Shown piece by piece: positions 7,685 through 63,364 of a stretch of 64,000 nucleotides of DNA. A program made the position numbers and the translations under genes. Source of the DNA: Actinomycetota bacterium (GTDB lineage: Bacteria > Actinomycetota > Actinomycetes > S36-B12); the NCBI GenBank assembly GCA_030650795.1, contig JAUSDJ010000031.1, forward strand, positions 153,123 to 217,122, read 5' to 3'. Numbering within the stretch: position 1 is the stretch's first letter; every line of letters begins with the position of its first letter. The notes beneath the pieces are model-generated. The model searched no databases and was not told where the DNA came from. It was given only the letters and a program-made list of their open reading frames with translations.

Positions 7685-7760
7685 CCCCCATCGCTTTGGA
7701 GTCCTCAGTTCCAGACCACTGACCCTGAAGGGCATCATTTCAGTACCCTCGCCATTCCGG

Positions 7761-45655: not shown

Positions 45656-46361
45656 CTGTGATGTACTCGGACCGCACGTCGCCCGACGTCTTGCTGATCC
45701 GCTGAGCATCGACCGTCACATCTGTGAAGCCGTGCCGCCCGAGCAATTCACGGATCTCAAGCACGTTGGCGCCCGCAACCTCGATTAGGCAGGACTCGAC
45801 GCCCTTCAGAGTGGCTGAAGCTCCGCGCAGCACCTCGACCTCGTGACCCTCAACGTCGATCTTGAGGTACCGGGGGGCGGGCAGCCCGGACGCCACCATT
45901 TCATCAACCGTCGTGATAGGAACCTCGACGATCTGATCGTTGGCCTTCGTCCGCGCCTTCGTAGACGCGACCCTGGCCTTTCCGTAGTAGCTCTCGTGAC
46001 TGCCCACGAACAACTGTGCGATGCCAGGTTGCGAACCCACCGCTTTCGGCACGACGAGGACCTGATCTTCGAAACCGTTCTGGCGGATATTGGCGACCAA
46101 TGCCTTGCGCACATATGGATTCGGCTCGAAGGCGACAAGCCGGGATGGGTCGCCGCTCGCCTTCGCCGCGAGCAGCGTGAACTCGCCTACGTTGGCCCCG
46201 ATATCCCAGATCGGGCCTGCCTGCGCCGAACAGGCCAGGAACCAGTCGACGGTGAACGACTCCTTGGGTGATCGCAGATACGGTTCGCCGTCAGGGATCG
46301 TGGGTCGAATCATGTAGAACTTGTGATTTCCCACGCTGACGACAGCGAACTTCCTGCTCAT
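45645..46361 (-). CDS. FkbM family methyltransferase
   Basis: IWDIGANVGEFTLLAAK ... AFEPNPYVRKALVANIRQNGFEDQV ... LKIDVEGHEVEVLRGA. Start placed at MSRKF (46361), preceded by GGTGG. The ORF track extension to 46616 overlaps the upstream gene. Confidence 0.7.
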   Translation of the reverse strand: MSRKFAVVSVGNHKFYMIRPTIPDGEPYLRSPKESFTVDWFLACSAQAGPIWDIGANVGEFTLLAAKASGDPSRLVAFEPNPYVRKALVANIRQNGFEDQVLVVPKAVGSQPGIAQLFVGSHESYYGKARVASTKARTKANDQIVEVPITTVDEMVASGLPAPRYLKIDVEGHEVEVLRGASATLKGVESCLIEVAGANVLEIRELLGRHGFTDVTVDAQRISKTSGDVRSEYITVRR

Positions 46362-46456
46362 CGAACCACCCCACCCTGCACGTCCATAGGACGTCGCGAC
46401 GAACCGAACGCTATCCGACCGACCCCGGGTTAACGCGGCCGGAGCGCCACGGTCGG

Positions 46457-47428
46457 TCACGCAATCGACTGTATCGAGAACGGCAGCCCCGGATCTCGCT
46501 TCACGGTCTTGGTGTTTGCCGAGGCCAACGCCTCGGCCAACACCGAGAAGTGGCGGCTGAAAACGATGGCAGGGTTGCGGTAGTACGTCATCACAGGTGT
46601 TCGCGTATATAGGCATAGGTATGAGAACCCCCCATAGGTACCCTTAAAGGCTCGGGCACTTGCCAGCAACTGGATCTGGTCGGCGATGTTCGTACGCTCG
46701 CTCGCCGTGTCAGCAGTAGGCAGGTCGAGATTCGCGCAGATCTGGGAGAATGGTTCATCAACGCCGAGGTTCTTCGACGGTTTCGCGAACGGCCGCGAGT
46801 CTTCGAGTGTGTGCCGATTGACGATCGCCAGGACAGGTCCTGCGTCGCGAGCCTGTTTGCAGATCTCACTCACGCGTCGCATGTTTTCGGTGGTGGCTTT
46901 CATCTGCGCCCCGAACCAGAACTTCAGAATCACGTTATCCGTCCGCTCGACACGGACGACAGCCGCTCGCGGAAAGGTAAGTGCCCGGGATCCAAAGCGC
47001 CGGATCGCAACGTGCATGAGATCGGCGCTTACGACGTGACTGCCAGCCAGACCCGCTGATGAGATTAGTTGCCACTCCCAGTCACTTGTGCCCGTCTTGT
47101 GGTTCTTTGCCCGCAATCCGCCATCAATCAGACGCTGGGTATCTCGCGCGACATATTCTTCCGGGCTCACTACATCAAGGACGTCCACGTATTCGAACGG
47201 GATGCCGATAGCACGGTAGAGATCTGCAGTCCCGCCTCGGCTCATCACCACAACGCGATGGCCGTCGAGTGCTCCTGACGTGGCGAGTGTAGTTATTTGA
47301 GGTATCCAATAGAGGGTCTCGAATCCGACCTCGCCGAGAAAGGGGCCGAACACCACAGTCGCGGCCTTCGCTTGAGGAATTCCGAATAGAGCGGTCAACT
47401 GAGAGGCGACGGACGGGTACTTCATCAT
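46457..47428 (-). CDS. stand-alone GPxxGExGFE module protein (paralog of the C-modules of the giant proteins)
   Basis: VVFGPFLGEVGFETLYWIPQI, VVVMSRGGTADLY and FKGTYGGFSYLCLYTRTPV align with the C-terminal modules of 31994 and 36970. Confidence 0.55.
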   Translation of the reverse strand: MMKYPSVASQLTALFGIPQAKAATVVFGPFLGEVGFETLYWIPQITTLATSGALDGHRVVVMSRGGTADLYRAIGIPFEYVDVLDVVSPEEYVARDTQRLIDGGLRAKNHKTGTSDWEWQLISSAGLAGSHVVSADLMHVAIRRFGSRALTFPRAAVVRVERTDNVILKFWFGAQMKATTENMRRVSEICKQARDAGPVLAIVNRHTLEDSRPFAKPSKNLGVDEPFSQICANLDLPTADTASERTNIADQIQLLASARAFKGTYGGFSYLCLYTRTPVMTYYRNPAIVFSRHFSVLAEALASANTKTVKRDPGLPFSIQSIA

Positions 47429-47714
47429 GCCCCCTCTGGCTCGGCGTCAGCATTCGGGGAACCCGTCCATCTGCAGACTCACTGTCGCTTGGCAACGGAC
47501 TCTATCAAGCAAGGCGTGGCGAAAGGCGAACTATGGAGAGGCCCGACGACGCCTGACCGGGGACGAAGGACCAGCGGCACAGCCCCGCCGCCGTAGCGCG
47601 AATTCACTCCTTACCACTGACCGCGAAACCCGGAAGCAATCTTGTGCGGCTAGGGTGTGCTTGTCGCAATAAGCGAGCTTGCTCGGCACTTGCCGACAGC
47701 CCAAAGGAGGCATC

Positions 47715-48764
47715 GTGGGTTTCATTGAGGACCTGAAGACTGAGGGCGACGGCGCCTTTCATGTGATTGCTGAGATCGGACACAACCATCAGGGCAGTCT
47801 TGAAAAGTGCATGGCGCTCTTTGATGCCGCCAAGCGTGCTGGCGCGCATTCCGTGAAGTTGCAGAAGCGCGACAACAAATCCCTTTACACGCCTTCAGTT
47901 TTCAACGAGACATATAACAGCACCAATGCCTACGCCGATACCTATGGAGCACACCGCGAGGCACTGGAATTCGGCAAAGACGAGTATTACGCGCTCAAGA
48001 AGTACGCCGAATCACTCGACATCATGTTCTGGTCTACCGCCTTCGACATCCCTAGCGTGGACTTCCTCGTCGATGTTGGCATCCCCGCGATCAAGATTGC
48101 TTCTGGCGACATCCGCAGCCACCACCTGCAGGAGTACGCGGCATCCACCGGGCTGCCTGTCGTGTTCAGCACTGGCGGAGCGACGATGCTGCAGGTACAG
48201 GCAGCACACGATGTGGTCTCAGCCCACACAAGCGAGTTCGCGATTCTCCAATGCATCGCTTCATACCCGGCACCATTTGACCAGTTGAATCTGAATGTCA
48301 TTCCGTCCTACATGCAGCATTTTCCCGATGCGGTCATCGGCTATTCCGGGCATGAGAATGGCATCGCCATGTCCAATGTCGCCTACGTCTTGGGCGCGCG
48401 TGTCATCGAGAAGCACTTCACCCTCGATCGCACAATGAAGGGCACCGATCACGCGTTCAGCCTCGAGCCCGAGGGCATGCGCAAGCTCGTTCGCGATCTT
48501 GAGCGCACGCGCCTGGCGATGGGGTCAAGTGTCAAGGAGCCCCTTGACCTCGAACTGCCGGCCGTGACCAAGATGGCGAAGAAAGCCGTGGCCGCACGCG
48601 ATCTCAAGGCAGGCGAGATCCTGCATCTGTCTGACATCGAGTTCCGCTCCCCTGGCAATGGCATTGCGCCGGACGAGGCGCACCGGATGTACGGACGCGT
48701 CTTGGCGCGCGATGTCGTGTGCTACGAGGACCTCAACTTCGTCGATTTCATCTCTGCTGACTGA
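47715..48764 (+). CDS. NeuB-family ulosonic/nonulosonic acid synthase (PEP-condensing) with C-terminal SAF domain
   Basis: AAAGGAGG 5 nt before GTG 47715. VIAEIGHNHQGSLEKCMALFDAAKRAGAHSVKLQKR is the NeuB signature. C-terminal VAARDLKAGEIL is SAF/antifreeze-like. Substrate specificity is not assignable. Confidence 0.85.
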   Translation: MGFIEDLKTEGDGAFHVIAEIGHNHQGSLEKCMALFDAAKRAGAHSVKLQKRDNKSLYTPSVFNETYNSTNAYADTYGAHREALEFGKDEYYALKKYAESLDIMFWSTAFDIPSVDFLVDVGIPAIKIASGDIRSHHLQEYAASTGLPVVFSTGGATMLQVQAAHDVVSAHTSEFAILQCIASYPAPFDQLNLNVIPSYMQHFPDAVIGYSGHENGIAMSNVAYVLGARVIEKHFTLDRTMKGTDHAFSLEPEGMRKLVRDLERTRLAMGSSVKEPLDLELPAVTKMAKKAVAARDLKAGEILHLSDIEFRSPGNGIAPDEAHRMYGRVLARDVVCYEDLNFVDFISAD

Positions 48765-49556
48765 ATGGACAGACTTGATGGAAAATCGGCCGTCGTCATC
48801 GGAGCCGATGGAAAGTTAGGTCCGATCTGGATCGAGGCGTTGTTCGAGGCCGGCGCAACCGTAACGGCGCTCTGTGAGCCAGGTCGGGCACCGAGTGATC
48901 GACTGAAGTCACTGATCGATACCGCTAGCGGTCAGATTCGGCTTGGCTCCTGCGACGTCTCGGACCCTGATTCAGTCCAGTCAGCGCGCGACGCCGTTAT
49001 CGCCGACGTCGGAGCCATCGATGTCCTTGTCGTCAACGCCGGGATCGACACCCCACCCGGTGCCACCGCCACGTGGGCCTTGGGCGAGTTTCCAGTCGCG
49101 TTGATGCGCAGAATCCTCGAAGTGAACGTCATCGGGGCCTTCAATGTCATGCAGGTCTTCAGCACCTCCATGCTCCCTGGGGGCTCGGTGATTGCCGTTG
49201 GCTCCATGTATGGCTCCAGCGCCCCTATGGCCACTTTGTATGACCACATCGAGACCGAGCCTGCCTTTCTCAAGCCGCCTGCCTATGGCGCCTCCAAGTC
49301 CGCGCTCAGCAATCTCGTCAACTGGTTGGCGGTCCATTGGGCGCCAACCGGATTGCGCTTCAACACCCTCAGTCCAGGCGGAGTGGCCGGCGGTCAGGAT
49401 CCCGAGTTCATCCGCAAGTTTAGCGCAACGGTTCCCATGCATCGACTGTGCGAGCCCGAAGAGTTGAAGGGCCCTCTGCTCTTCCTCGCGTCTGATGCCT
49501 CGTCCTACATCACGGGCTCCGAACTCCTGGTGGATGGAGGTCGACACGCATGGTGA
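48765..49556 (+). CDS. short-chain dehydrogenase/reductase (SDR)
   Basis: VVIGADGKLGP cofactor loop, NAGI, YGASK (YxxxK). Confidence 0.8.
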   Translation: MDRLDGKSAVVIGADGKLGPIWIEALFEAGATVTALCEPGRAPSDRLKSLIDTASGQIRLGSCDVSDPDSVQSARDAVIADVGAIDVLVVNAGIDTPPGATATWALGEFPVALMRRILEVNVIGAFNVMQVFSTSMLPGGSVIAVGSMYGSSAPMATLYDHIETEPAFLKPPAYGASKSALSNLVNWLAVHWAPTGLRFNTLSPGGVAGGQDPEFIRKFSATVPMHRLCEPEELKGPLLFLASDASSYITGSELLVDGGRHAW

Positions 49557-51007
49557 CCACGACCCTGATCGGCTGCAACATCATCGACGGCGATGACACT
49601 GTCGCCGCGAACGCCCAACTTGTTGATCGCTTCGGCCCGGCAGATGGCACTCTCGCTGGACAGCGAGTCGAATCCGGTGCTGCAGAAATCGATCAGGCGC
49701 TGGCTGCCGCGCGCGCCGGTCAGGCTGCTTGGGCCGCCACCACACCGGTATTCCGTGGTGAGTTGCTGCGCGCTATCGCGCGCGAGCTCGACGCTCGGAT
49801 CGAGACGCTGGCGCACCTCGTGCATCTGGAGACTGGCAAGAGCTTGGCCATGGCGCGCGGCGAGGTGCGTGGTGCAATTGAGCTCGCCTATTTCACAGCA
49901 GCAGAGGGCCGGCGCTTCTACGGCCGCACCACCACCAGTGCGATACCTGGCAAACAAGTCTCAACGTGGCGAGCACCCATCGGCGTAGGAGCACTCATCG
50001 CCGCGAGCAATACGCCGGTTCCCAACTACGCCTGGAAGGTGTTTCCAGCGCTGCTGGCTGGAAATTCAGTAATCCTCAAGCCCAGCGAGCACACCCCCTT
50101 CTCCGCGGTGGAGTTCGTTCGGATCTGCCTTGACTGCGGAGTCCCGGCCTCGGCCCTGCAACTGATTCAGGGAAGCGGCCCGGGCACCGGCTCGACGTTG
50201 GTTGAGTCCAAAATCGAATTGGTCTCTTTCACTGGGAGTGCGGCTGTTGGGCGCGGCATTCTTGCCAGCGCAGGCGGCCGCCTCATTCGTGCAGCCGTCG
50301 AACTTGGCGGCAAGAACGCGATGATCGTGTGCGACGACGCTGACCTGTCCGCTGCAGCCGACGCTGCTGTGGCCTCGGCGTTCTCCAATGCTGGCCAAAG
50401 GTGCGCCGCCACCAGCCGCATCATCGTTATGGGCAGTGTGTACGAGGAGTTCACCAGACTGCTGCTCGAACGAACCTCGGCCCTGACCTTGCACGGACAA
50501 GACGACTCGGTTGGTCCGGTCATCGGCGAAATCGCCGTCGCGCGCATCACCGCTGCCGTCTCGGGCGCGGCCGAGCGGGGCGCAACGCTTCTCGCTGGTG
50601 GACCAGATTCAGTCCCCGGCTCACTTGCAGGTGGCTGCTTTGTCGCTCCCACCATCCTGGCCGATGTGCCGGCGGACGATCCGATCTCGGTCGAAGAGGT
50701 GTTCGGGCCGGTGGCCAATCTCTACCGAGTTGGCAGTTTTGCCGAGGCGATTGCCCTGGCTGCGCAAACTGAGTACGGACTCACAGGTGCGATCTGGACC
50801 GACTCTGTGGATCGCGCATTTCACTTCACTTCAACCGCACGGGTCGGCATGGCTGTAGTGAATGGGCCGACATTCGGCAGTGAGCCGCACATGCCTTTCG
50901 GCGGCTTCGGCTCGTCTGGCAATGGCACCCGCGAATGCGGCACAGAGGTCTTCGACTTCTATACCGAACTGCGCACAGTGGCAGTGCTCACTCGCGAGCC
51001 GAGATGA
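49550..51007 (+). CDS. NAD(P)-dependent aldehyde dehydrogenase
   Basis: VELGGKNAMIV, FSNAGQRCAATSR (catalytic Cys), EEVFGPV. Overlaps the SDR stop. Confidence 0.85.
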   Translation: MVTTTLIGCNIIDGDDTVAANAQLVDRFGPADGTLAGQRVESGAAEIDQALAAARAGQAAWAATTPVFRGELLRAIARELDARIETLAHLVHLETGKSLAMARGEVRGAIELAYFTAAEGRRFYGRTTTSAIPGKQVSTWRAPIGVGALIAASNTPVPNYAWKVFPALLAGNSVILKPSEHTPFSAVEFVRICLDCGVPASALQLIQGSGPGTGSTLVESKIELVSFTGSAAVGRGILASAGGRLIRAAVELGGKNAMIVCDDADLSAAADAAVASAFSNAGQRCAATSRIIVMGSVYEEFTRLLLERTSALTLHGQDDSVGPVIGEIAVARITAAVSGAAERGATLLAGGPDSVPGSLAGGCFVAPTILADVPADDPISVEEVFGPVANLYRVGSFAEAIALAAQTEYGLTGAIWTDSVDRAFHFTSTARVGMAVVNGPTFGSEPHMPFGGFGSSGNGTRECGTEVFDFYTELRTVAVLTREPR

Positions 51008-51765
51008 CGGCAGTCGCCCTCATTCCCGCTCGCTCTGGCAGCAAGCGCATCCCCGGAAAGAACACGCGACTGCTGGCTGGGCATCCGGTTATCGCGTACA
51101 CGATTGCCAGTGCGATCTCATCAGGAGTGTTCGACCGCGTGATTGTCAGCACCGATGATGCCCCGACCGCCGCTGTGGCGACGTACTACGGAGCCGAGGC
51201 GCCCTTCCTGCGCCCGGCTGAACTGTCCCAGTCTGACTCCGCAGACATCCTCTGGGTACTCCACGCACTCGACTGGCTGGACAACGAGGGTGAACTGCCA
51301 GATGTCTGCGCGCTCTTGCGGCCAACCAGCCCACTTCGGCAGCCTGCGTCCATTCGCCAGGCGATGGATCAATTCACCCAGTCCGATGGCTATGACTCGA
51401 TTCGTGCGGTCACTCGCTGCGAGCAGCACCCGGCGAAAATGTGGGTGCTCGATGAGGATCGCCTCGGCATGAGCCCACTTCTGCCGGTATTGGAGGATGC
51501 CGTTCCGGCGCACAGTCGGCCATACGACACCCTCCCCGAGGTCTATGTACAGGATGCGAGCCTTGAGATCTTCTGGACCCGTACCGCACGCGAGCTCGGT
51601 TCGATTGCCGGTACGCGAATCATGGCTTGGATCACCCCAAGCCCCGAGGGCATGGATCTCAACTTCCCGGCAGACTGGACTCTGCTCGCCGATCTCGTTG
51701 CCCGAGAACCTTCAGTCCTGCCGACAATCCTGCAACCGCCGTATCAAGATCAGGGGATGAACTAG
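51004..51765 (+). CDS. CMP-ulosonic acid synthetase (acylneuraminate cytidylyltransferase family, NeuA/KdsB-like)
   Basis: ALIPARSGSKRIPGKN signature. ATGA overlap with the ALDH stop. The ORF track start at 50935 is rejected. Confidence 0.8.
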   Translation: MTAVALIPARSGSKRIPGKNTRLLAGHPVIAYTIASAISSGVFDRVIVSTDDAPTAAVATYYGAEAPFLRPAELSQSDSADILWVLHALDWLDNEGELPDVCALLRPTSPLRQPASIRQAMDQFTQSDGYDSIRAVTRCEQHPAKMWVLDEDRLGMSPLLPVLEDAVPAHSRPYDTLPEVYVQDASLEIFWTRTARELGSIAGTRIMAWITPSPEGMDLNFPADWTLLADLVAREPSVLPTILQPPYQDQGMN

Positions 51766-53657
51766 TGCCGACCGCCGATGTTTGCTTTGTGCCACAGACC
51801 TTTCTGTCTCAAGTCCTCGCGGCACCTGCCCCACTTACACAACGCGTCACTGCGTTCGCAGAGCTCTCGCGCATCAACACTCTGGGCATGATCATGATGG
51901 CCGGGTCAGGGCACATCGGCTCAAGCTTCAGCTCTGTCGACATCATGTCGTGGGTGCTTGCTGGCGAGCTCGCGCATCACACTGAACAACCAAATCCTGG
52001 GCGCTTCTTCTCGTCGAAAGGACACGATGCGCCAGCCATGTATGCGGTGAACATCGGCCTGGGTCGAATCGATGAAAGCCTCCGCACCAAGTTGCGGCGC
52101 CTCGATGGTCTGCCCGGCCACCCCGACACCTCCATTCCTTCCATGATCACGAACACCGGCTCGCTGGGCATGGGCATCTCCAAGGCCAAGGGCTTCGTCT
52201 TCGCCGACCGCCTCAAGGGCGCAGAACTGCCTACATATGTACTCCTGGGCGATGGTGAGCTGCAAGAAGGGCAGATCTACGAATCCCTCGCAGGCGCAGT
52301 CAATGCCGGCTACTCATCGATCACCGCGATCATCGACTGGAATCGGATTCAGTCGGACACCTGGGTCAGCAAGGTCTCCGACCTTGGCGACATCGAAGCG
52401 AAGTTCGCGTCCTTCGGCTGGAACGTTCGCGCCTGCGATGGCAACGACGTCGAAGCAATCGCCAGTGCCCTCGCTGAACTGCGCGATGCACAAGGACCAG
52501 GCGTGCTCATTGCTCACACAGTGAAGGGCAAGGGTGTCTCATTCATGGAGGATTTCGCTCCGGACGGGGATCTCTACGCCTTCCACTCCGGCGCACCCGC
52601 CATTCCGGTGTACCTGGAGGCATTGGCCGAACTGCAAGCTCGCGCAGGAGTCCTCGTTGGCGAACTGGGCCTGGGTGAAGTGTCCTACGAGACTGTTCTG
52701 CTTGATCGCCCGGTCGCTCCAAAGCCGACCACGCTCGTGGAATCCTGGTCCAACGCCCTCGGTGCCATGGCCGCACGCCGCGCTGATGTCGTGGTGCTGG
52801 ATGGCGACCTGCGCAAGGATCTCGGGCTGGTGCAATTCGCGGCCGAATACCCGGAGCGATTCATCGAGTGCGGCATCGCCGAACAGGACATGGTCTCGCA
52901 GGCCGGCGCGCTGGCGCTGAGCGGGCTTCTTCCGATCTCCTGCTCGTTTGCCTGCTTCCTCACCACCCGACCGCACGAGCAGATCCTGAACAACGCCTCT
53001 GAAGGCACGCACCTGCTCTATGTCGGCGCACTGGCCGGCATCATTCCGGCCGGACCAGGCCACAGCCACCAAGCCGTGACCGACGTTGCCGTGATGAATG
53101 CACTCAACGGCATGCTGATCGCCGAGCCATTCCATCCCTCCCAGATGTCCTCGATCGTCGCGACATTGACTGATGTGCATGACGGACCTGCTTACCTGCG
53201 CATCTGCAGCGTGCCACTGCCATTCGAGGAGATCCCAGAGCCAGACCTTCTCGACATCGGCAAGGGTCAGGTGCTGCGCGAAGGAAGCGATGTGGTCCTG
53301 TTTGCTTCGTCAGCGCCGCTCGTGCTGCAGGCCCTTCGGGCAAGCGATGCGCTCAAGGAGCTTGGGATCTCGGCAACGGTGGCCGCAACTCCTTGGCTGA
53401 ATCGCATGGACCCCGACTGGATGGCCTCTCTAGTGTCGCCTGGCAAGCCACTTGTGGTCATCGAGAACCATGTGCGTTCCGGCGGCTTCGGCTCCACTGT
53501 TGCGGGCGCGCTCGTGCAAGCAGGCATTGCAGTGCCATGGCTTCATGTGTGCGTCGAAGGCAAGCAGGCTTGCGGCACTAACGACGAAGCCTTGGCCTTC
53601 CATCGGCTCGATGCTGCGTCAATCACCAGCCGTGTGCAGGCCTTCGTCAACGCGTAG
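51765..53657 (+). CDS. transketolase-family ThDP enzyme (N- and C-terminal subunits fused)
   Basis: GSGHIGSSFSSVDIMSW and GDGELQEGQIYE (ThDP motif) in the N-half; ECGIAEQDMVS in the pyrimidine-binding half. GTG 51765 overlaps the upstream TAG by 1 nt. Confidence 0.8.
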   Translation: MPTADVCFVPQTFLSQVLAAPAPLTQRVTAFAELSRINTLGMIMMAGSGHIGSSFSSVDIMSWVLAGELAHHTEQPNPGRFFSSKGHDAPAMYAVNIGLGRIDESLRTKLRRLDGLPGHPDTSIPSMITNTGSLGMGISKAKGFVFADRLKGAELPTYVLLGDGELQEGQIYESLAGAVNAGYSSITAIIDWNRIQSDTWVSKVSDLGDIEAKFASFGWNVRACDGNDVEAIASALAELRDAQGPGVLIAHTVKGKGVSFMEDFAPDGDLYAFHSGAPAIPVYLEALAELQARAGVLVGELGLGEVSYETVLLDRPVAPKPTTLVESWSNALGAMAARRADVVVLDGDLRKDLGLVQFAAEYPERFIECGIAEQDMVSQAGALALSGLLPISCSFACFLTTRPHEQILNNASEGTHLLYVGALAGIIPAGPGHSHQAVTDVAVMNALNGMLIAEPFHPSQMSSIVATLTDVHDGPAYLRICSVPLPFEEIPEPDLLDIGKGQVLREGSDVVLFASSAPLVLQALRASDALKELGISATVAATPWLNRMDPDWMASLVSPGKPLVVIENHVRSGGFGSTVAGALVQAGIAVPWLHVCVEGKQACGTNDEALAFHRLDAASITSRVQAFVNA

Positions 53658-53676
53658 GTCAGATACCGTCAAGCAC

Positions 53677-55335
53677 ATGCGAGAACGCGTGCGCGCACTC
53701 CTGCGCCCACTTGCGCGCAGGCACGCGAGTCGCCGCTACCTCCCGAACTGGTCAGCCCTCGGACTGCCAGCGCACGAAAGTCCTAACGGAAGCCGCGTGC
53801 TCCTGGCGACCATGGCAGGAGGAAATCTGCAGGCCATGAATGTCGAACGCCTGCTCGCAGCGGCACTCACCGTGCGAGGCCATCACGTCGATGCAGTGCT
53901 GTGCGACGGAGCTCTTCCGGCCTGCATCGAATGCAGCTACCTCGTGATCGCACCGAGCAGGATGGCATCGGCCGGACCGTCAGAATCAATGTGCAGGCAA
54001 TGCACGGCAACAGGCGTGCGCGCATTGGAGTCCGCCGGGGCCAGCTTGCACTCTCTCTCAAAGTGGATCCTGCCCGAGGATCACGCTGAGGCCGAGCGAC
54101 TCAGCGAGTCAGCGTTGGACGTGGCATCACTGACTCTCGACGACATCGCCATCGGGCAGCATGCCCGAGCGGGAGCCCTTCGGTTCGAGGCGCGGGCAGT
54201 GCTCGCTGATGGGCCCGAGAGTCAACGGATCCTCTTGCGCTATCTGCGCGCTGCGGTGCTGACCTGTCGAGCAACGCAAAGGATGATTGAAGACCTCGCC
54301 CCAGATGTCATCGTGCTGCAGCACGGCATCTATGTGCCTCAGGGCGTCGTCGTCGAGACCGCCAAAACGCAAGGAGTTCGGGTTGTCACCTGGACTTCCG
54401 GCTACCCGGAATCATCGATGCTCTTCGCCCATGGTGATACCTACCACCGAACAATGCTGGCCGAGACTCCTGCCGACTGGGCAGACGTTGAGTGGACTCC
54501 GCAGCGTGCGCAGGCAACGCGCGAATACCTGGACTCACGTCGCACAGGATCACGCGATTGGATTCGGTTCGGCTCGGCGCAAGCCTCTGCCTTGGCAGAG
54601 TCATTGCCCCAAGTCGTGCTGGATCCAAGACCATTGGTGCTGGTGCTGCCCAATGTCTCGTGGGATGCCCAGATCCATTTTGAGGGGCGCGCCTTCGCAT
54701 CGCAGACCGACTGGCTTCTGCACACCATCGAGTGGGCACGCACCAGGCCAGATCTCCAAATCGTCATTCGTGCGCATCCGGGCGAGGTGACCGGATTCCT
54801 GCCAGCGCAGGATCCACTTCGCGAAATCCTGCCGATCGCTCACCTCCCAGAGAACGTGAGCTTCGTGGATTCCACTTCTCCAACATCCACCTATGAACTT
54901 GTCGATCTGGCAAACGTCGTCATTGTGTATGGCACAAAAGTTGGAGTCGAGGCCTTGGCTCAAGGTCGGCCGGTGATCACCGTGGGTGAAGCGTGGATCC
55001 GAGGCAAGGAACTCTCTATCGACGTGGAGACATCAACTGAGTACCAAAGGGTCCTTGATCAACTTCCCTTCGCTGACGGGATTGCCCCCGAGCACACTGA
55101 TCGTGCGCTTCGATACGCGCATCACCTGTTCCTGCGGCGCATGATTCCGGTGCGCGCACTCCAACGGGTTACCCATCCCGGACCAGGCCGCCCGCTGTAC
55201 TGGGCGGTCGTGCCCGCGCGCCAATCGCTTGCTCCAGAGCAGGATACTGGTCTGGATGCCGTCTGCAAAGGCATCGTCGAAGGTACCTCGTTCGTTCTTG
55301 ACTCGGCTTCTCCTCCACAGCCCCCAGCGGCATGA
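53677..55335 (+). CDS. KpsC/KpsS-like (Capsule_synth-like) putative ulosonic-acid transferase
   Basis: LVLVLPNVSWDAQIHF, IVIRAHPGEV and VVIVYGTKVGVEALAQGRPVI resemble the LQVxxDxQ / HP / NSxxGxEAL pattern of KpsC/KpsS as I recall it. Start is at MRERV, just after the transketolase stop. Confidence 0.5.
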   Translation: MRERVRALLRPLARRHASRRYLPNWSALGLPAHESPNGSRVLLATMAGGNLQAMNVERLLAAALTVRGHHVDAVLCDGALPACIECSYLVIAPSRMASAGPSESMCRQCTATGVRALESAGASLHSLSKWILPEDHAEAERLSESALDVASLTLDDIAIGQHARAGALRFEARAVLADGPESQRILLRYLRAAVLTCRATQRMIEDLAPDVIVLQHGIYVPQGVVVETAKTQGVRVVTWTSGYPESSMLFAHGDTYHRTMLAETPADWADVEWTPQRAQATREYLDSRRTGSRDWIRFGSAQASALAESLPQVVLDPRPLVLVLPNVSWDAQIHFEGRAFASQTDWLLHTIEWARTRPDLQIVIRAHPGEVTGFLPAQDPLREILPIAHLPENVSFVDSTSPTSTYELVDLANVVIVYGTKVGVEALAQGRPVITVGEAWIRGKELSIDVETSTEYQRVLDQLPFADGIAPEHTDRALRYAHHLFLRRMIPVRALQRVTHPGPGRPLYWAVVPARQSLAPEQDTGLDAVCKGIVEGTSFVLDSASPPQPPAA

Positions 55336-56303: not shown

Positions 56304-56930
56304 TCAAGGCGCGATCTGTTCGTGATTGAACTGTCGGTACATGTGCGCAGTGAACAGGGCCGTGAACGGCAAGGTCAGCAGTGTCAGCACACCGAAGAAC
56401 AAGGTGCCCGACAGGCTCACGATGACGTTCAGGATGGTCATGATCGCCGCTGGGCCGATGTTCATGCGAATGGCTTCGAAACTCGATCTGATGGCTTGTC
56501 CGACATTTGATCCCCTGTCGAGCACAAAGAAGGGGCCAAGTTGGAGAAAGAAGATCACGAAGAAGGCCGGAAGGATGCACAAGAGCAGGCCAACAATGGT
56601 GAGTGCGATGTAGGCGAGCACGAACAGGATGTAGCGGCCAAGGTTCTGCATGGTGAGCATGTCCGCAAAACTCGGCTCGTGGCCTTGGGTGGTGCGCAGG
56701 GCTGCGCGATCAACGCCGATGGCGGCGAACGCTGAAAGCAGAAGAAAGACGAAGGTAAGGATCAGCAGGGCGAAGGCGCCCGCGCCTGCTTCGCTGAACA
56801 GGCGCTGAGCGACCTGCGCAATGAACTGGGTGACCATGACCACGGCGGCCAGAGCCAGCAGTGGCACCGCATTCGCGCGAAAGGTGTCAAAGGCCCAGAT
56901 CAGAGCCTTTCGAACGTCGGGCTTATCCAT
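56304..56930 (-). CDS. integral membrane protein (conserved backbone, unknown function)
   Basis: Start at MDKPDVRKALIWAFDTF. Four to five TM helices. The ORF track extension to 57260 overlaps the upstream gene. Confidence 0.5.
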   Translation of the reverse strand: MDKPDVRKALIWAFDTFRANAVPLLALAAVVMVTQFIAQVAQRLFSEAGAGAFALLILTFVFLLLSAFAAIGVDRAALRTTQGHEPSFADMLTMQNLGRYILFVLAYIALTIVGLLLCILPAFFVIFFLQLGPFFVLDRGSNVGQAIRSSFEAIRMNIGPAAIMTILNVIVSLSGTLFFGVLTLLTLPFTALFTAHMYRQFNHEQIAP

Positions 56931-58275
56931 TGATCTGCTCGCTCTCGTGGTCTGGAGCGGCTGATGCTTCCACATCTTGGACGCTCTTCGCCCCAGCTGT
57001 CTCTGCCGATGGGCTTTTGGCCTGTGGCTGCGCATCGGGCATAGCGTCATCGCCTGTTGGAGTCGGCTCGGCGTTGTAGTACTTGTCTCGCGGCTGTTCA
57101 ACCTCTGGCGGTGGCACCGTGCGCAGCGCGAGGGCTGTTGGCACGGCTCCGATCGCGGTGAGGCCAAAGGCAAGCAGACCAACGAATACGGGGTCCGGTC
57201 CGATGCTGAGCAGGCGGACGTCCCCGAGTGATCCGGCGCTGAGCGAAGTGAGTAGACCAATCACCACACCGACCACTACGCAGGCAGCTGTGGCACTTGC
57301 GAGGCGCATGAGTGCTGGCAGCGGTCCGCCTCGCACGCAAGTGATACCAACGCCAACACCGATGATCACAGCGATGATCGGCAGACCCCAGGCGAGCGGC
57401 CCGACTCGCTCTGGCAGCGCGGCCAGCAGCGGGAAGGCAGGAAGCTCGGTCGGTGGTGGCGTGGGCATGAACGGCGACAGGCCAATGCCCGGTCCGATAG
57501 CGATGCCTGGCCCAAGCAGGTAGGCGGTGGACCAGAGGACGAGCACTGGGAGGTAGCCGATGCAGGCAATCACGATGAGCAGGCCGCCGAAGACTCCAGC
57601 ATCGAGGAACTCCAGAATCTCGCGGGCCTGCCAGAAGTGCCAGATCAGCGAGATCAGTGCCAGTACGGCGCCAGCACCGAGCAGGCCGAGCATTCCCGCT
57701 GCTCCCGCTCGCAGGACAGTCCAGATGTCCTTGGGGATCAGCTTGAGCAAGGCCCTGCCCTGATCAGTTGTCCTGCCGAGGGCAACCGCGAAGGTCACAG
57801 CGGCGATCACAGCCCCTGTGAGCGCCGCTTGGCCTGTGGGGGCTTGCAGCCCCGGGGTGGCTGTGATCGCTGCGACCGCGGCCATCACGACCGCGTAGGT
57901 CAGCGTTGCAACGGCGAGAAGGATGCCAAGTTCGAGCCTGCCAGAGCGCTTGGTGGCGCGGCCGAGCATGAGGCCAGCACGGTAGAGGGCGAAGATCACG
58001 ATGATCACCAGGCCCCATGGCAGGATCGAGTACTTCACGCTGCCGTTGTTCAGCGGCACATTCTGGATGCCGAGCCAAGCCCCGCCGATGAGATCAAAGA
58101 GCTCACGCGGTCCATTTGAACCGTGCTCTGTGGTGAGCCAGGCCGCCCAGATGGGAATGCCGATGAGGACGAAGCTGCTTGCCGCGGCAAAGAGGACTCC
58201 GATAGGAGCGATGAACCACCGCGGATGGAGTCGGGAAGTCAGCGCTTTCAGGTCGTTCATCACCGGCGCGCTCAC
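56923..58275 (-). CDS. polytopic membrane protein (PerM/DUF6350-like?) with acidic/Pro-rich C-terminal tail
   Basis: 450 aa, more than 10 TM helices. Its position between sucCD and purNH recalls the mycobacterial membrane proteins in that interval. Homology not verified. Confidence 0.5.
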   Translation of the reverse strand: MSAPVMNDLKALTSRLHPRWFIAPIGVLFAAASSFVLIGIPIWAAWLTTEHGSNGPRELFDLIGGAWLGIQNVPLNNGSVKYSILPWGLVIIVIFALYRAGLMLGRATKRSGRLELGILLAVATLTYAVVMAAVAAITATPGLQAPTGQAALTGAVIAAVTFAVALGRTTDQGRALLKLIPKDIWTVLRAGAAGMLGLLGAGAVLALISLIWHFWQAREILEFLDAGVFGGLLIVIACIGYLPVLVLWSTAYLLGPGIAIGPGIGLSPFMPTPPPTELPAFPLLAALPERVGPLAWGLPIIAVIIGVGVGITCVRGGPLPALMRLASATAACVVVGVVIGLLTSLSAGSLGDVRLLSIGPDPVFVGLLAFGLTAIGAVPTALALRTVPPPEVEQPRDKYYNAEPTPTGDDAMPDAQPQAKSPSAETAGAKSVQDVEASAAPDHESEQING

Positions 58276-58298
58276 TGGTCCACCATTTCAGACTTTGG

Positions 58299-58331
58299 TG
58301 CACTGATCGTGGACCTGCCGTGGGTGTTCGA
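58299..58331. repeat. left copy of 33-bp direct repeat flanking the AbiE cassette
   Basis: tgcactgatcgtggacctgccgtgggtgttcga versus 59899-59931 tgcgctgatcgtggacctgccgcctgtgttcga. 29 of 33 positions identical, with an 18-nt perfect core, exactly 1600 bp apart. Confidence 0.75.
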
Positions 58332-58450
58332 GAGCTCACCCCACTCTGTAGGGGTGAATAGGACAACACCGACCTTGAAGTGTGTATAAAAAAAAGTCTG
58401 AAACATTTCTGATATGCTTTCACGCAGGTTCTTTACACAGGAGATGCCCG

Positions 58451-59278
58451 ATGCGTACGCTTTCCGCAGTACCGATAGCGCGCCTTCGCGATGACATTGT
58501 CGGACGTGGCATCAGCGCACTCACGCTCAATGAGGTCGTTGCACTGACGGGACTCACGCGCGGTTCGGCTCGTGAGGCAATGAGGCGGACTCGCGCTGCG
58601 GGCCACTTCTTCGCTCCCACTCCCGGCCTCTACATCCCCATACCATCGGAGTATTCAAGCTGGGGCGTCGTGCCCGCCATGGACTTCATCGATCAGATGA
58701 TGGGCTTTCTCGGAAGGTCGTATTGCGTCGGACTGCTGTCGGCTGCAGAACTGCATGGCGCCGCACACCAGCGCCCGCAGGTGTTCCAGGTGATGGTCGA
58801 TCGCCCCCTCGCAAATCGTGACATCGAGCGTGTCCGGCTTCGCTTCTACGAGCGCGTCGATGTCGGTCACACGCCGGTCGTTCTCAAGAACTCACGCACT
58901 TCACAAGTGCGTGTTTCCTCTCCTGAGACGACGGTGTTGGACCTTGTCGATCGGCCACGCGACTCAGGTGCGCTATTCAATGTTGCCACTGTCATCGGTG
59001 AATTCGTGCAAGAAGAACTACTCGACGCTGAGACGCTGGTGGCCCTCGCTTCGTCCTACCCACTCGCCACGGCCCGCAGGCTCGGTTGGCTGCTCGACCG
59101 CGACGCCGAGTTCGTTGAGACGACCACGCTGTCAGCGCCCCTCCAGGAGTTCGTCAACAGTCGAACGACCGAGGGGAAAAGGTCAGTTGACATGCTCGAT
59201 GCCAGCGGGCCACGACGCGGCAAGGCGAACAAGAAATGGGGAATCATCGAGAATGTCGAAGTGGAGCCTGACCTGTGA
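58451..59278 (+). CDS. abiEi: AbiEi family type IV TA antitoxin / transcriptional regulator
   Basis: LTLNEVVALTGLTRGSAREAMRR wHTH N-terminus. GVVPAMDFIDQMMGFLGRSYCVGLLSAAELHGAAHQRPQVFQVM is the conserved AbiEi core. An AT-rich promoter region lies upstream. Confidence 0.8.
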   Translation: MRTLSAVPIARLRDDIVGRGISALTLNEVVALTGLTRGSAREAMRRTRAAGHFFAPTPGLYIPIPSEYSSWGVVPAMDFIDQMMGFLGRSYCVGLLSAAELHGAAHQRPQVFQVMVDRPLANRDIERVRLRFYERVDVGHTPVVLKNSRTSQVRVSSPETTVLDLVDRPRDSGALFNVATVIGEFVQEELLDAETLVALASSYPLATARRLGWLLDRDAEFVETTTLSAPLQEFVNSRTTEGKRSVDMLDASGPRRGKANKKWGIIENVEVEPDL

Positions 59279-59890
59279 TTCCTCAAGCAGTGATTCAAGC
59301 CTGGGCAGTGGATCGACCCTGGCCGACTTTGGTGGCCGTGGAGCAGGATCTTGTGCTGGCCAGACTCATTGTCGAGCTTGCAGCCCATCCGATGCTCAGC
59401 AACGAACTCGTCTCTCGCGGTGGCACATGCCTTCATCAACTCGTGCTGAATCGACCGCGCCGCGAGCCTGCGCATCAAAGTCGAGATCAACACTCACGAG
59501 ACATCGCCAGCATTGCCCACCATCAGAATGCCCTTCGCCGTCAAGAGTGAGTGGTTCACTGGGAACGCGGAAGTGCACACCTTCGCGGTGGCCGAGTTGT
59601 TCGCTACCAAGATCCGGGCTCTGTATCAACGAAGGAAGGGTCGCGACCTCTTTGACATGTGGCTCGGCCTCACCGAACTTCAGATGCCGGGGTCACAAAT
59701 TGTCGGAGCATTCGGGCCCTACCGCCCCGCTGGCCTCACAGCGACCCTCGCGGAGGAAAACCTGCGGGAGAAGCTCAACAATGCACAGTTCCGATCAGAC
59801 CTGGATGCACTCGTCTCAGTGTGGCCGCCTGCGTTCGACATTGACGATGCTGCCGAGCTCGTCATCGCCGAAGTGTTGCGATTGTTGTAG
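59275..59890 (+). pseudogene. abiEii: AbiEii nucleotidyltransferase toxin, disrupted (frame change plus internal deletion)
   Basis: Frame 1 (59275-59550) gives the N-terminus up to LVSRGGTCLHQLVLNRPRR, then nonsense. Frame 2 resumes at about 59444 with LRIKVEINTHETS...ELFATKIRALYQRRKGRDLFDMW. The expected RxSxDxD catalytic segment between GGT and KVEIN is absent. Confidence 0.65.
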
Positions 59891-59898
59891 CTCACGAA

Positions 59899-59931
59899 TG
59901 CGCTGATCGTGGACCTGCCGCCTGTGTTCGA
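59899..59931. repeat. right copy of 33-bp direct repeat flanking the AbiE cassette
   Basis: See the left copy. Lies immediately 3' of the GGDEF-EAL gene stop codon (59932-59934, minus strand). Confidence 0.75.
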
Positions 59932-61221
59932 TCAAGAATGCAGATAGACGTTCTTGAAGAGCTCACTGATCTGGCTTGGCGGCACAGCTTCGGAGTAGAG
60001 GAAACCTTGTGCGCTCGGGCAGCCAACTGATCTGAGGTATGCCGCCTGATCTGCGTTCTCGACTCCCTCGGCAGTGACATGAAGGCCGAATTCTCGGGCC
60101 AAGGCCACAATCCCAGCAATCAGGCGTCGGTCAATATCACTGGTCAATACGTTGGCCACAAAACTCCTGTCAATCTTCACAACATCTACAGGGTATTCGC
60201 GTAAGTAGGCCAATGACGCAAAGCCGGTACCGAAGTCATCAATGGCAATCCGTATTCCACGGTCGCGAATGCCAAAGACATTTGCTCGCACCGTGGGGGT
60301 TGGACGCAGCAGAGCAGTCTCAGTGATTTCAAAGCACAACAGTTCGGGGCGAACCGAACTGGAAATCAGCGCTCGATCCATGGTGTCCAGCAATGTCGGC
60401 ATCGACAGTTGCAATGCCGAAACATTGACGCGCACGAGCAGTGCCCGTTCTGGATGCTCAATCGCCCAATTGGCAGCCTGATGGAAGGACTGCTCGATAA
60501 CCCAACTGCCAATCTCCAGAATCAGACCAGTGTCCTCAGCAGTGCGAATGAACTCTTCAGCAAGTCGCATGTTGCAACCCGGACGAAGCCACCGAATCAG
60601 TGCTTCAACTGCCCTGATTTCTCCAGATTCGAGATCGATCTCGGGTTGGTACCAAACGTGTAATTCTTCTCGCTCGAGTGCAGCGCTCAGTTGATTTTCA
60701 GCTGTGACGCGTGCAAGCACCGCAGCTTGAATATCCGAGTTGAAAAAGGCCATTTGGTCGCGACCCTCTGATTTGGCAGTGGCCATCGCTGTTTCGGCTT
60801 CGTGTATCACAATCTCGGGTTCGCTCTGATCACTCGCAATTGCCACGCCAACGCTGACAGTGGTGAATAGTGAATTGCCAAAGACTTCAAGCGCATCATG
60901 GAATTCATTGATGATGCGCATGGCCGCACGAACAGGCTCGGTGGGGTTGCTCAGTTCGCGAATGACAACCAAGAACTCATCGCTGCCTGCACGAGCAACG
61001 AGATCACTGCCTCGAACGGTCGCCTTGATTCGCTCGGCGGCCGCGCGAAGAAGTTCATCACCAACACGGCGACCAAGCGCTTCATTGACTTCGGTGAATC
61101 GATCCAGTCCAATCATCAGGACTGCAGTTGCTCGACCTGAACGGCGACTGGAACTCAGCGCGCGGCCCAACTCAGCCAGCAGGGCGTCGCGGCTGGCGAG
61201 ACCGGTCAACTGGTCTTGCAT
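59932..61221 (-). CDS. GGDEF(GSDEF)-EAL protein, probable c-di-GMP phosphodiesterase, no N-terminal sensor domain
   Basis: Begins directly with MQDQLTGLASRD. The A-site reads RAGSDEF and RGSD is at I-site spacing. The EAL domain has EALIRW, NVSALQL, EITE, DDFGTGFASL, KIDRSF, AEGVEN and QG, so all catalytic positions are present. Confidence 0.85.
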   Translation of the reverse strand: MQDQLTGLASRDALLAELGRALSSSRRSGRATAVLMIGLDRFTEVNEALGRRVGDELLRAAAERIKATVRGSDLVARAGSDEFLVVIRELSNPTEPVRAAMRIINEFHDALEVFGNSLFTTVSVGVAIASDQSEPEIVIHEAETAMATAKSEGRDQMAFFNSDIQAAVLARVTAENQLSAALEREELHVWYQPEIDLESGEIRAVEALIRWLRPGCNMRLAEEFIRTAEDTGLILEIGSWVIEQSFHQAANWAIEHPERALLVRVNVSALQLSMPTLLDTMDRALISSSVRPELLCFEITETALLRPTPTVRANVFGIRDRGIRIAIDDFGTGFASLAYLREYPVDVVKIDRSFVANVLTSDIDRRLIAGIVALAREFGLHVTAEGVENADQAAYLRSVGCPSAQGFLYSEAVPPSQISELFKNVYLHS

Positions 61222-61374
61222 CGCTACTTCACCAACTCAACCACCGGGAGCCTCCGCTTACTATCCAGATTCGGCCCAAGGCTACCGTGGAGAAGCCCCT
61301 CAAAAGTCGTCATATCTATGTATTCTTTCCCCATCCACTATTGACTTGTTTATTGATACATAGGACCATGCCAT

Positions 61375-61974
61375 ATGGCCTCGAAATCCGGACGGCGTCC
61401 CACTCCTCCATTGGCCCAACTCTTTGCCAGCGCAACACTGCCACGCCTTCTGGCTGCGCTCTTCCTGCACGATCGGATCAATGTCACTCAACTCGTCCAG
61501 AATGTGGGTGTGAGTCGAGCTGTTGTCAGTCGAGAGCTTGCCCGGCTTGATGAGCTGGGTCTGCTTGAAAGCAAACGTGAGGGCAACATCCGCTGGGTGT
61601 CGATCATTGAACATTCCGAAGTGGCTGCTGCTTTGCGCACACTCGCACTCGCCTCCTATGGCCCGCCCGCAGTTGTAGCTGGCGAGTTTGCATCAATTGC
61701 TGGTGTTGAGCGGTGCTTCATATATGGCTCCTGGGCATCACGCAATGCCGGAGTGCGCGGCGCGCTTCCGCGCGATGTCGACGTACTGCTCATCGGCAAT
61801 CCCGATCGCGACAAGGTTTTCCAGGCCGAAGCGCGTGCCGAATCTCGACTCGGGCGCGAAGTGAACACAAGAACTCTCAGCGAACGAGAGTGGACCAGCG
61901 ATGCTGATCCGTTCTTTGCGGCATTGAAGGAACGCCCACTATTCGAAGTGAAGCCTGATGACAACAGAAAATGA
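61375..61974 (+). CDS. winged-HTH fused to minimal nucleotidyltransferase (MNT-like antitoxin candidate)
   Basis: LPRLLAALFLHDRINVTQLVQNVGVSRAVVSRELARLDELGLL (ArsR-like wHTH), then FIYGSWASRNAGVRGALPRDVDVLLIG (GS...DxD NTase motif). Confidence 0.6.
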   Translation: MASKSGRRPTPPLAQLFASATLPRLLAALFLHDRINVTQLVQNVGVSRAVVSRELARLDELGLLESKREGNIRWVSIIEHSEVAAALRTLALASYGPPAVVAGEFASIAGVERCFIYGSWASRNAGVRGALPRDVDVLLIGNPDRDKVFQAEARAESRLGREVNTRTLSEREWTSDADPFFAALKERPLFEVKPDDNRK

Positions 61975-62461
61975 TCTGCCGCGCAACGCAGAAATCATTG
62001 CGTCGATGTTGCGAGCCAATCAGCTCGAGAGCGTTCCAGTCTCGATCCAGCTCGCAACCGAGCTGATCGACAAGGCCAATGGTCGCTTGCGATCTGTTGT
62101 GCGCTCACTGGATGCCGATGACCTTGGTGAATGCGCGTCGCCGCTGTGGGATGCCATCCGGCTTTCACTTTCAAGCGTTCTTCAAGCCCAAGGATTGCGC
62201 GCTGGCGGTGCAAAGGGTCACCACTTAAATGTCCTTGAGGCGATCGAGGCTCAATACGGGCACCATCCTGAGATTGGTCCGCAGATGGCTCGCGTTCGTC
62301 GGATTCGCAGCGATCGAAACAAGGATGAGTACCCAGCCCGGCTCGGTGAGGACACCGCCGACAAAGCAGACCTCACCGAAAGCCTTCGAGTGGCCCATGA
62401 ACTTCTCGCTACAAGTGAGCGCATTGCCATGAAGATTGCGCCATTCGACCGAAGTGTCTGA
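61958..62461 (+). CDS. HEPN-like helical protein (toxin candidate)
   Basis: Overlaps the upstream gene by 17 nt. All-helical composition. GLRAGGAKGHH fits Rx4-6H spacing, and the later RRIRSDRNKDEY resembles RN..EY HEPN variants. Assignment is tentative. Confidence 0.4.
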   Translation: MTTENDLPRNAEIIASMLRANQLESVPVSIQLATELIDKANGRLRSVVRSLDADDLGECASPLWDAIRLSLSSVLQAQGLRAGGAKGHHLNVLEAIEAQYGHHPEIGPQMARVRRIRSDRNKDEYPARLGEDTADKADLTESLRVAHELLATSERIAMKIAPFDRSV

Positions 62462-62491
62462 ATGCTTCGGCATGTTTGCTACTTTTGTTGA

Positions 62492-63364
62492 TTAGCCCCT
62501 GATCATGATTTCGCGCATCAGGCGGGCAGTCGCACTCGGCGTCTTGCCTACCTTCACACCAACAGCCTCGAGCGCTTCCTGCTTGGCTGCCGCGGTGCCG
62601 GCCGAGCCCGAGACGATGGCGCCAGCGTGACCCATCGTCTTGCCCTCAGGAGCAGTGAAGCCAGCCACGTAGCCGACAACCGGCTTGGTGATATGCAGAC
62701 CGATGTACGCAGCCGCGCGCTCTTCAGCATCGCCACCGATCTCACCGATCATCACGATGGCGTCAGTGTCGGGGTCATCCTGGAATGCCTGGAGGGCATC
62801 GATGTGGGTGGTGCCGATGATTGGGTCGCCACCGATGCCAACGCAGGTGCTGAAGCCGATGTCGCGCAACTCGTACATCATCTGGTAGGTCAGGGTGCCC
62901 GACTTCGAGACGAGACCGACGCGGCCTGGCTTGGTGATGTCGGCCGGGATGATGCCGGCATTGGACACACCGGGTGAAATGACGCCCGGGCAGTTCGGGC
63001 CGATGACGCGCGTCTTGCCCGAGTTCTGCGAGAGCTGGAAGAACTTCGCGGTGTCGTGAACGGGGATGCCTTCGGTGATGAGGATCAGCAAAGGGATCTC
63101 AGCGTTGATGGCTTCTTCAACCGCACCGATGGCGAACTTCGGTGGCACAAATGCCACGCTGACGTTTGCACCGGTTGCGGCGATTGCATCGCCAACGGTG
63201 TTGTAGATCGGGATGCCGTCAAGATCCTGACCGGCCTTGCCCGGGGTCACACCGGCCACCACATTGGAGCCTGAGGCAACCATGCGACGGGTGTGCTTGC
63301 TGCCCTCTGAACCAGTCATGCCCTGGACCAGGATCTTGCTTTCGCTGTTCAGCCAAATAGCCAT
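62492..63364 (-). CDS. sucD: succinyl-CoA ligase subunit alpha
   Basis: [46 protein letters not shown] phosphohistidine loop. Confidence 0.95.

Follow-up and report, generated by a model that had tools for sequence, protein, structure and literature searches.

How does a small defence module come to lie between two copies of the spacer that separates its neighbours? The question is raised by a locus in an uncultured Actinomycetota bacterium (GTDB lineage S36-B12; assembly GCA_030650795.1, contig JAUSDJ010000031.1), of which we analysed positions 153,123 to 217,122, a stretch of 64,000 nucleotides here called the window. In it, a module of the AbiE family of toxin-antitoxin (TA) and abortive infection (Abi) systems lies between a GGDEF-EAL gene and a gene for a perM-like membrane protein and is bracketed by direct repeats of 33 nt. 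An initial annotation, made from the sequence alone, had taken the arrangement for a mobile cassette of 1.6 kb that lacks a recombinase and duplicated a single intergenic site when it inserted. We find that the 33-mer is the native spacer between the GGDEF-EAL and perM-like genes, and that the module has long resided at a variable spot and is not demonstrably active as a cassette. The explanation we favour, at even confidence, is that the duplication is the scar of a homology-anchored insertion into a permissive gap (or of a single crossover with a circular intermediate) and not the footprint of a transposase.

A repeat search recovered the pair at the coordinates of the initial annotation, with 29 of 33 positions identical (88%), starts 1600 nt apart and an 18-nt perfect core, CTGATCGTGGACCTGCCG. 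The positions relative to the neighbouring genes agreed as well: the last base of the right, EAL-proximal copy, 59931, adjoins the EAL stop codon (59932-59934, minus strand), and the left, perM-proximal copy lies 23 nt upstream of the perM-like GTG start at 58275. The core has exactly two matches in the window, even when up to 3 mismatches are allowed, and two or more matches did not occur in any of 100 dinucleotide shuffles of the window, which excludes chance. A separate Logan assembly of run SRR13727527 holds both junction sequences; because it is independent, the two-copy structure is not one assembler's artefact. Direct repeats around an insert are also the classic mark of a transposon. 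To our knowledge, however, all known target-site duplications are far shorter than 33 nt, the copies are imperfect, and neither a transposase nor terminal inverted repeats were found at the module ends. We therefore regard a transposase target-site duplication, together with chance and assembly artefact, as effectively refuted.

The 33-mer might also have been a common dispersed intergenic element unrelated to the borders of the module, which the initial annotation had named as evidence that would count against its proposal. This was ruled out by the core search in the window and by two wider searches. An nhmmer profile built from five copies, both window copies among them, found no further copy in the window or in any fetched locus; the left copy scored E=2.7e-08, a match that is partly by construction, as the profile includes that copy. 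A degenerate 30-nt pattern that covers all six known 33-mer copies matched a single contig in the JGI metagenomes, at the same locus as in the relative L009 described below, and none of 2.9 million viral contigs. A longer duplication with a 27-nt deletion, considered on account of the words AGCTCAC and GAGCTCAC by both repeats and the EAL 3' end, was rejected, an 8-nt match being found in 17% of shuffles.

The origin of the 33-mer was evident from related genomes. Using PerM homologs at 76-83% identity, we reached contigs of five related lineages, which have the gene order sucC, sucD, (variable), GGDEF-EAL, (variable), perM in common. At two loci (L011 and L017) the gap between EAL and perM is empty: the EAL TGA is followed by exactly one copy of the 33-mer, the 23-nt leader and the perM GTG. 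The empty site for which the initial annotation had proposed to look thus exists, and its single ancestral intergenic site is borne out. Relatives free of AbiE that nevertheless carry both copies, which would have spoken against a duplication tied to the module, were not encountered, as L011, L017 and L004 have one copy each. The gene layout of P0003, the closest PerM relative (83%), is compatible with an empty site. In the outgroup L001, a Nanopelagicales metagenome-assembled genome (MAG) whose PerM is 63% identical and which is the only GTDB species representative with a relative, EAL is directly upstream of perM; gene order alone was used here, and homology of the L001 spacer to the 33-mer was not demonstrable (267 of 2000 shuffles).

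Elsewhere the gap holds cargo, always on the strand opposite to EAL and perM and always matching defence-related PADLOC profiles. Locus L004 carries a Fic-domain gene (6738-7751, minus strand) that matches SoFic/PDC-S04, together with one recognisable spacer copy, and L005 to L008 carry a 2OG-Fe(II) oxygenase gene (7312-7947 in L005, minus strand) that matches the CRISPR-associated '2OG' model; both inserts consist of one gene with its own upstream region facing perM. In a single species represented by L009, L010, L012 and L013, the gap contains orf65, an intact abiEii and abiEi. The AbiEi of L009 is the closest database homolog of the window protein (81% identity, also for L013). The L009 module meets the spacer at the same perM-side point as the window module, directly 5' of GAACAC (within ~2 nt), but this spacer copy is the only one; the EAL side is occupied by an unrelated segment of 295 nt that contains orf65. 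An ortholog at the same junction without a second copy, together with the native GC content and flank-like divergence described below, leaves the view that the duplication arose when a mobile cassette of 1.6 kb inserted without firm support. Neither nhmmer nor shuffled local alignment revealed a significant remnant of a second copy in L009 or L004.

Some observations on these inserts are recorded here for completeness. At the place of the window's second copy, L009 (3747-3944, plus strand; also L010 and L012) has orf65, an open reading frame (ORF) of 65 codons with a good ribosome-binding site, convergent with abiEii stop to stop and belonging to no Pfam family. Degenerate second copies spotted by eye in L009 (orf65 end), L004 (3' end of the Fic gene) and L005 (both sides) were not significant in shuffled alignments and were not used. 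The exception was a weak signal on the EAL side of L005, with p ~0.004 for one copy and 0.08-0.4 for the others, which was likewise not used as evidence.

The recurrence of inserts at one place can be explained by the spacer itself. Between lineages 24-30 of the 33 spacer positions are identical and the leader is conserved (Table 1), compared with an identity of only 0.51-0.69 at perM third codon positions. By this comparison, the EAL-perM spacer is under selective constraint. Because of this constraint the Fic insert of L004 and the AbiE inserts of L009 and the window begin within a couple of bases of the EAL stop; only the gap after that stop spares both EAL and the spacer, and a site-specific enzyme is not needed to explain why inserts recur there. 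As to what is being conserved, GGTCCAC in the repeat core is able to pair with a GTGGACC of the leader that lies at the perM ribosome-binding region. Our best guess is that the conserved spacer (58255-58335, minus strand) acts as a translational or leader element for perM. An 11-mer of the leader, AAAGTCTGAAA (58287-58297, minus strand), also occurs inverted in the abiEi promoter region (58393-58403, plus strand), ~100 nt away on the other side of the left repeat; at the promoter position L009 has GTCAAAAAC instead, and the 11-mer may be a shared regulatory word or chance.

A functional spacer raises the possibility that both copies were kept for what they do, one as the 3' end of the EAL transcript and the other within the promoter or 5' leader of perM; how the duplication arose would then be a separate question. 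The spacer is far more conserved than synonymous sites, and the mismatches between the copies fall where species also vary. RNAalifold retains the GGTCCAC/GTGGACC helix across G-U changes, with one compensatory pair in which the left copy takes part. The fold z-scores, however, are not significant, no Rfam family, consensus promoter or terminator matched the repeat, no downstream pairing partner was found for the right copy, and L004 and L009 do without an EAL-side copy. We consider it very improbable that function accounts for the pair.

We next turn to the module between the copies (Table 1). Its genes are, by sequence, operon layout and promoter architecture, members of the AbiE family. The initial annotation had listed an abiEi and an abiEii gene; the first was confirmed by Pfam and PADLOC, but the second is not intact. 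Compared with the L009 gene, abiEii has suffered a 167-nt deletion at 59460/59461, which removed the YSEDLDF... region containing nucleotidyltransferase motif II (DLD) and shifted the frame, so that the sequence is split into frames of 91 and 125 aa. Matches to the Pfam and PADLOC AbiEii models are limited to the C-terminal 125 aa (profile positions 135-258 of 260). AbiEii proteins are DUF1814 nucleotidyltransferases with motifs I-IV (hG[G/S]x15DhD etc.), and in Streptococcus agalactiae mutation of D67 or D69, which correspond to aspartates deleted in the window, abolishes toxicity and GTP binding (PMC3985639). The 4-nt overlap of abiEi and abiEii (GTGA, 59275-59278) is still present, as it is between the S. 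agalactiae genes (PMC3985639). As judged from the coding sequence, no TA or Abi activity is expected from the truncated toxin gene, and the locus is best described as a degenerate AbiE locus in decay, with a dead toxin gene.

What remains of the module is probably a self-repressed AbiEi regulator. Upstream of abiEi the hexamers TGTGTA and TACACA enclose CTGATATGCTT, an architecture common to the window, L009 and an island copy in L014 despite ~30% DNA divergence. The operators of AbiEi are inverted repeats, and abiE is autoregulated by AbiEi in the systems studied (PMC3985639, PMC7319586); the window hexamers fit such regulation. The related module of L014 (7001-8579; also L015 and L016) likewise has an intact abiEi and an abiEii that is called only as a 140-aa fragment, which indicates that toxin decay with antitoxin retention occurred independently.

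Table 1. Coordinates of the AbiE module, the two spacer copies and the flanking genes in the window
Feature	Position	Strand	Basis and remarks
perM-like membrane protein gene (DUF6350/PerM), conserved left flank	56923..58275	-	Pfam DUF6350 2.3e-55
Conserved perM leader, CCAAAGTCTGAAATGGTGGACCA	58276..58298	-	19-23/23 identical among five lineages
perM-proximal spacer copy	58299..58331	-	perM-sense TCGAACACCCACGGCAGGTCCACGATCAGTGCA; runs on into conserved perM leader
abiEi putative promoter/operator region	58381..58450	+	TGTGTA 58381-58386, TACACA 58434-58439, CTGATATGCTT 58409-58419 between; GGAG ribosome-binding site 58440-58443
abiEi, intact antitoxin/repressor gene, 275 aa	58451..59278	+	Pfam AbiEi_1 6.1e-32; PADLOC AbiEi 2.4e-63 over residues 15-275
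abiEii pseudogene	59275..59890	+	Alignment to intact 260-aa L009 gene
8-nt joint, CTCACGAA	59891..59898	+	Between abiEii stop and EAL-proximal copy; candidate illegitimate junction
EAL-proximal spacer copy	59899..59931	-	perM-sense TCGAACACAGGCGGCAGGTCCACGATCAGCGCA; adjoins EAL stop codon, like empty sites
GGDEF-EAL gene, conserved right flank	59932..61221	-	Pfam EAL 8e-67, GGDEF 1e-35; directly upstream of perM in L001, L011, L017

Neither its composition nor its divergence marks the module as a recent arrival. The initial annotation had noted an AT-rich contrast with the surroundings. This applies to the promoter stretch at 58332-58450 (119 nt, 45% GC), to which the AT-richness is confined, but not to the module as a whole, whose GC content of 58.7% compares with 59.7% for the window, 64% for perM and 54% for EAL; a foreign composition was rejected on this comparison. 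At conserved residues, the third-position identity between window and L009 was 0.64 for abiEi, 0.73 for sucD, 0.56 for perM and 0.49 for EAL. The value for abiEi falls within the flank range of 0.49-0.73, which makes the module as old as the lineage split. Module DNA had no plasmid or phage match in PLSDB and INPHARED and AbiEi had no viral relative, and a plasmid, phage or viral origin was ruled out on these grounds. An AbiEi of 72% identity is encoded in a tyrosine-integrase island (L014-L016), beside Gp49/helix-turn-helix, SWIM and HipA-type genes, and we conclude that the unit of promoter, abiEi and abiEii moves between contexts over long times. A hairpin at the end of the module on the perM side, present in the window and L009 but out of register, was dropped.

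This island bears on the possibility that the repeats are attL and attR sites and the module a recombinase-less satellite or island remnant, placed into a 33-bp attB by a tyrosine or serine recombinase encoded elsewhere. The direct repeats do correspond to the single site of the empty genomes, their 18-bp core is perfect with mismatches flanking it, three kinds of cargo use the same gap, and a related AbiEi does occur in an integrase island. In agreement with the initial annotation, however, the module has no recombinase of its own: none of the ORFs between 44.5 kb, which is ~14 kb left of the module, and the window end encodes a recombinase domain, and neither the window nor the loci contain a tRNA gene. 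Moreover, the Fic insert of L004 and the AbiE insert of L009 lack a second copy, the L014 module is not bracketed by repeats and its island has no match to the 33-nt site. The 33-mer is without dyad symmetry, the pattern was missing from the viral contigs and confined to one locus in the metagenomes, and the module itself is old and decaying. We consider an attachment-site origin improbable.

In a broader version of this proposal, a recombinase encoded elsewhere in these genomes would use the EAL-perM spacer as a dedicated attachment site and there exchange, in trans, defence cassettes that have no recombinase of their own (AbiE, SoFic-like Fic, 2OG oxygenase), the window would hold the only intact attL/attR pair, and a branch in the assembly graph of SRR13727527 would be the trace of an excised or rearranged form. 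The branch is seen where the Logan contigs covering 58121-59920 and 59891-62905 (loci L002 and L003) overlap by exactly 30 nt (k-1), at 59891-59920, which comprise the module end and the first 22 nt of the right repeat. An overlap of exactly k-1 implies that the sample contains a second sequence with this 30-mer but with another base at 59890 or 59921. The left repeat is excluded as the cause by its difference from the right-copy 30-mer at 58302, and the unbroken passage of the first contig through the left repeat argues against a simple circle junction. We regard exchange in trans at a dedicated site as distinctly improbable.

In the homology-anchored entry that we favour, DNA carrying the module, derived from an occupied allele of the same lineage, would have entered a chromosome with an empty site. 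The incoming DNA would have been anchored by homology on the perM side, that is by spacer, leader and perM. On the other side the incoming DNA, at a point 8 nt past the abiEii stop, would have been joined illegitimately to the recipient immediately behind the latter's own copy of the spacer. EAL would then adjoin the spacer of the recipient, and perM that of the donor. The same product would result from a single crossover with a circular intermediate that bears one spacer copy. Such a route would not require an element-encoded recombinase, and the flanking repeats it leaves could permit rare precise loss, restoring an empty site with a single copy. Both the route and the timing of this entry are inferred from the present arrangement.

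Entry of this kind accounts for the exact extent of the repeat, whose two ends would be the point of the first insertion, at the EAL stop, and the new joint. It also accounts for the junction shared with L009, for the absence of the orf65 segment from the window and for the allelic-looking differences between the copies. The copies differ at four positions, three of which form one triplet, AGG/CCA, that reads TGG, TCA, TGC and TGC in the relatives. This is the site most variable between species, and a difference there is what an origin of the copies from two alleles would lead one to expect. The left copy has 4 differences to the right copy and 7-9 to other lineages, and a G at position 13 is found in both window copies and in none of four relatives; the closeness to the right copy and the shared G13 point to a source of the left copy within the same lineage. 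Entry of foreign DNA with one homologous anchor is documented as homology-facilitated illegitimate recombination (HFIR) in Escherichia coli conjugation (PMC3240628), and HFIR has been proposed for effector-immunity modules that displace one another at type VI secretion system (T6SS) clusters of Vibrio cholerae (PMC5361080).

Several points weigh against homology-anchored entry. The two-copy state is found in one genome only, and the event is reconstructed from this single product. The similarity of the 8-nt joint to the L009 sequence downstream of abiEii is not significant, which leaves the donor end unverified, and the microhomology at the joint (GCGC) is weak. The difference of 4 in 33 cannot date the duplication, as the spacer is under selection. 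We know of no natural transformation or other DNA-uptake route in this lineage. The graph branch of SRR13727527 at the right repeat could reflect a structural variant that the model does not predict. Finally, the right copy is equally close to the left copy and to the single copy of L011 (29/33 in each case), which an ancient duplication fits equally well.

In that alternative history, the module would already have been acquired, with duplication of 33 nt, by the ancestor of the whole group, and the window lineage would have kept both copies; the L009 lineage would have lost the EAL-side copy on the arrival of orf65, and the empty sites would have arisen by precise repeat-mediated excision. 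Several of the findings above speak for it: the divergence of the module equals that of the flanks, the perM-side junctions of window and L009 are identical, the empty sites have exactly the one copy that repeat-mediated deletion would leave, and the copy-to-copy identity falls within the between-species range. The window also looks basal to the other lineages by sucD and EAL, so that the module shared with L009 would be ancestral. Such a history would still call for a mechanism that duplicates 33 nt, however, and for precise loss or replacement to have happened independently several times. The two methods mentioned above detected no remnant of a second copy in L009 or L004, the more distant L001 is empty, and the G13 common to both window copies and absent elsewhere would have to be explained by gene conversion. 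We consider this history unlikely.

The surroundings of the module have features of their own. The gap between sucD and EAL, adjoining the EAL-perM gap, is a second variable spot. In the window it contains a pair of genes that overlap by 17 nt (61375-62461, plus strand), whose products, a 199-aa protein that begins with a winged helix and a HEPN-like protein of 167 aa, match the PADLOC candidate defence system PDC-M05 (PDC-M05A, 7.6e-40; PDC-M05B, 8e-07). A PDC-M05-like pair is present in the window, L004 and L011 but not in L005 or L009, and L004 has a HigB/HigA pair there in addition. To the left of perM (44513-55335) lies a cluster of polysaccharide or nonulosonic-acid type, with NeuB, cytidylyltransferase, aldehyde dehydrogenase, short-chain dehydrogenase, transketolase-like and capsule-synthesis domain genes. 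Part of this cluster is also found downstream of perM in L011, and it contains no mobile-element genes.

Taken together, the locus offers a base-pair view of the turnover of one- and two-gene defence modules between two core genes in uncultured Actinomycetota, with no visible mobile-element machinery. A constrained spacer leaves a tiny permissive gap, which different lineages filled with different defence genes, and in one lineage the spacer would have stayed duplicated as a scar of the module's entry. The order of decay usual for such modules can also be seen, with the toxin gene lost first and the regulator or antitoxin surviving. There is no evidence for a new kind of mobile element. The locus opens no new question and will not surprise the specialist; its use is as a worked example and as a search image, namely a duplicated native spacer around small cargo.

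Among known systems, the module resembles the AbiE type IV TA/Abi system (Dy et al. 2014, PMC3985639) in having an AbiEi-family gene first, a 4-nt GTGA overlap with a DUF1814 nucleotidyltransferase gene and a promoter flanked by inverted repeats. Unlike that system, the module has a toxin pseudogene without motif II and resides on the chromosome of an uncultured Actinomycetota MAG, between two copies of a host spacer. With the effector-immunity displacement arrays of V. cholerae T6SS clusters (PMC5361080; Rhs loci are hypothesised there) and with HFIR (PMC3240628), the proposed entry shares one homologous anchor, one illegitimate joint and the lack of an own recombinase. This parallel concerns the proposed mechanism only, as the trace in the window is a 33-nt duplicated spacer around a single module and not an array of orphan genes. 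The architecture of the module and its flanks fits what an HFIR product would be expected to show, namely one junction in continuous homology, a novel joint with little or no microhomology at the other and recipient sequence retained beside that joint.

The likeness to integrase islands with attL and attR lies in flanking direct repeats that correspond to one site in the empty genomes L011 and L017 and in the 18-bp perfect core. In contrast to such islands, neither an integrase nor a tRNA target was found, other inserts do not reuse the site with duplication, and there is no viral, plasmid or phage match, the sole metagenome match being the same locus. The module differs from transposons and insertion sequences in lacking a transposase, terminal inverted repeats and a short target-site duplication. 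An integron cassette would be expected to end in an attC recombination site and to belong to an IntI/attI platform; here no integrase was found, the module has its own promoter, and no imperfect palindrome comes after abiEii, where the 8-nt joint is followed directly by host spacer. Xer-dependent modules, such as IMEX elements and the pdif modules of Acinetobacter plasmids, are small, recombinase-less, often TA pairs and bracketed by short specific sites. The 33-mer, unlike those sites, has no dif-like dyad arms around a 6-bp centre and is a local gene spacer not found elsewhere.

Hotspots of defence genes between conserved core genes are a concept of the defence-island literature. The EAL-perM gap conforms to it in that the relatives carry different defence-type cargo (AbiE, SoFic-like Fic, 2OG oxygenase) between syntenic core genes. 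It departs from it in that the cargo consists of one or two genes without mobile-element genes and in that the spot is confined to a gap of ~2 nt after a stop codon. The repeats are thus best compared with the scars of homology-anchored module entry, and the locus with defence-gene hotspots between core genes.

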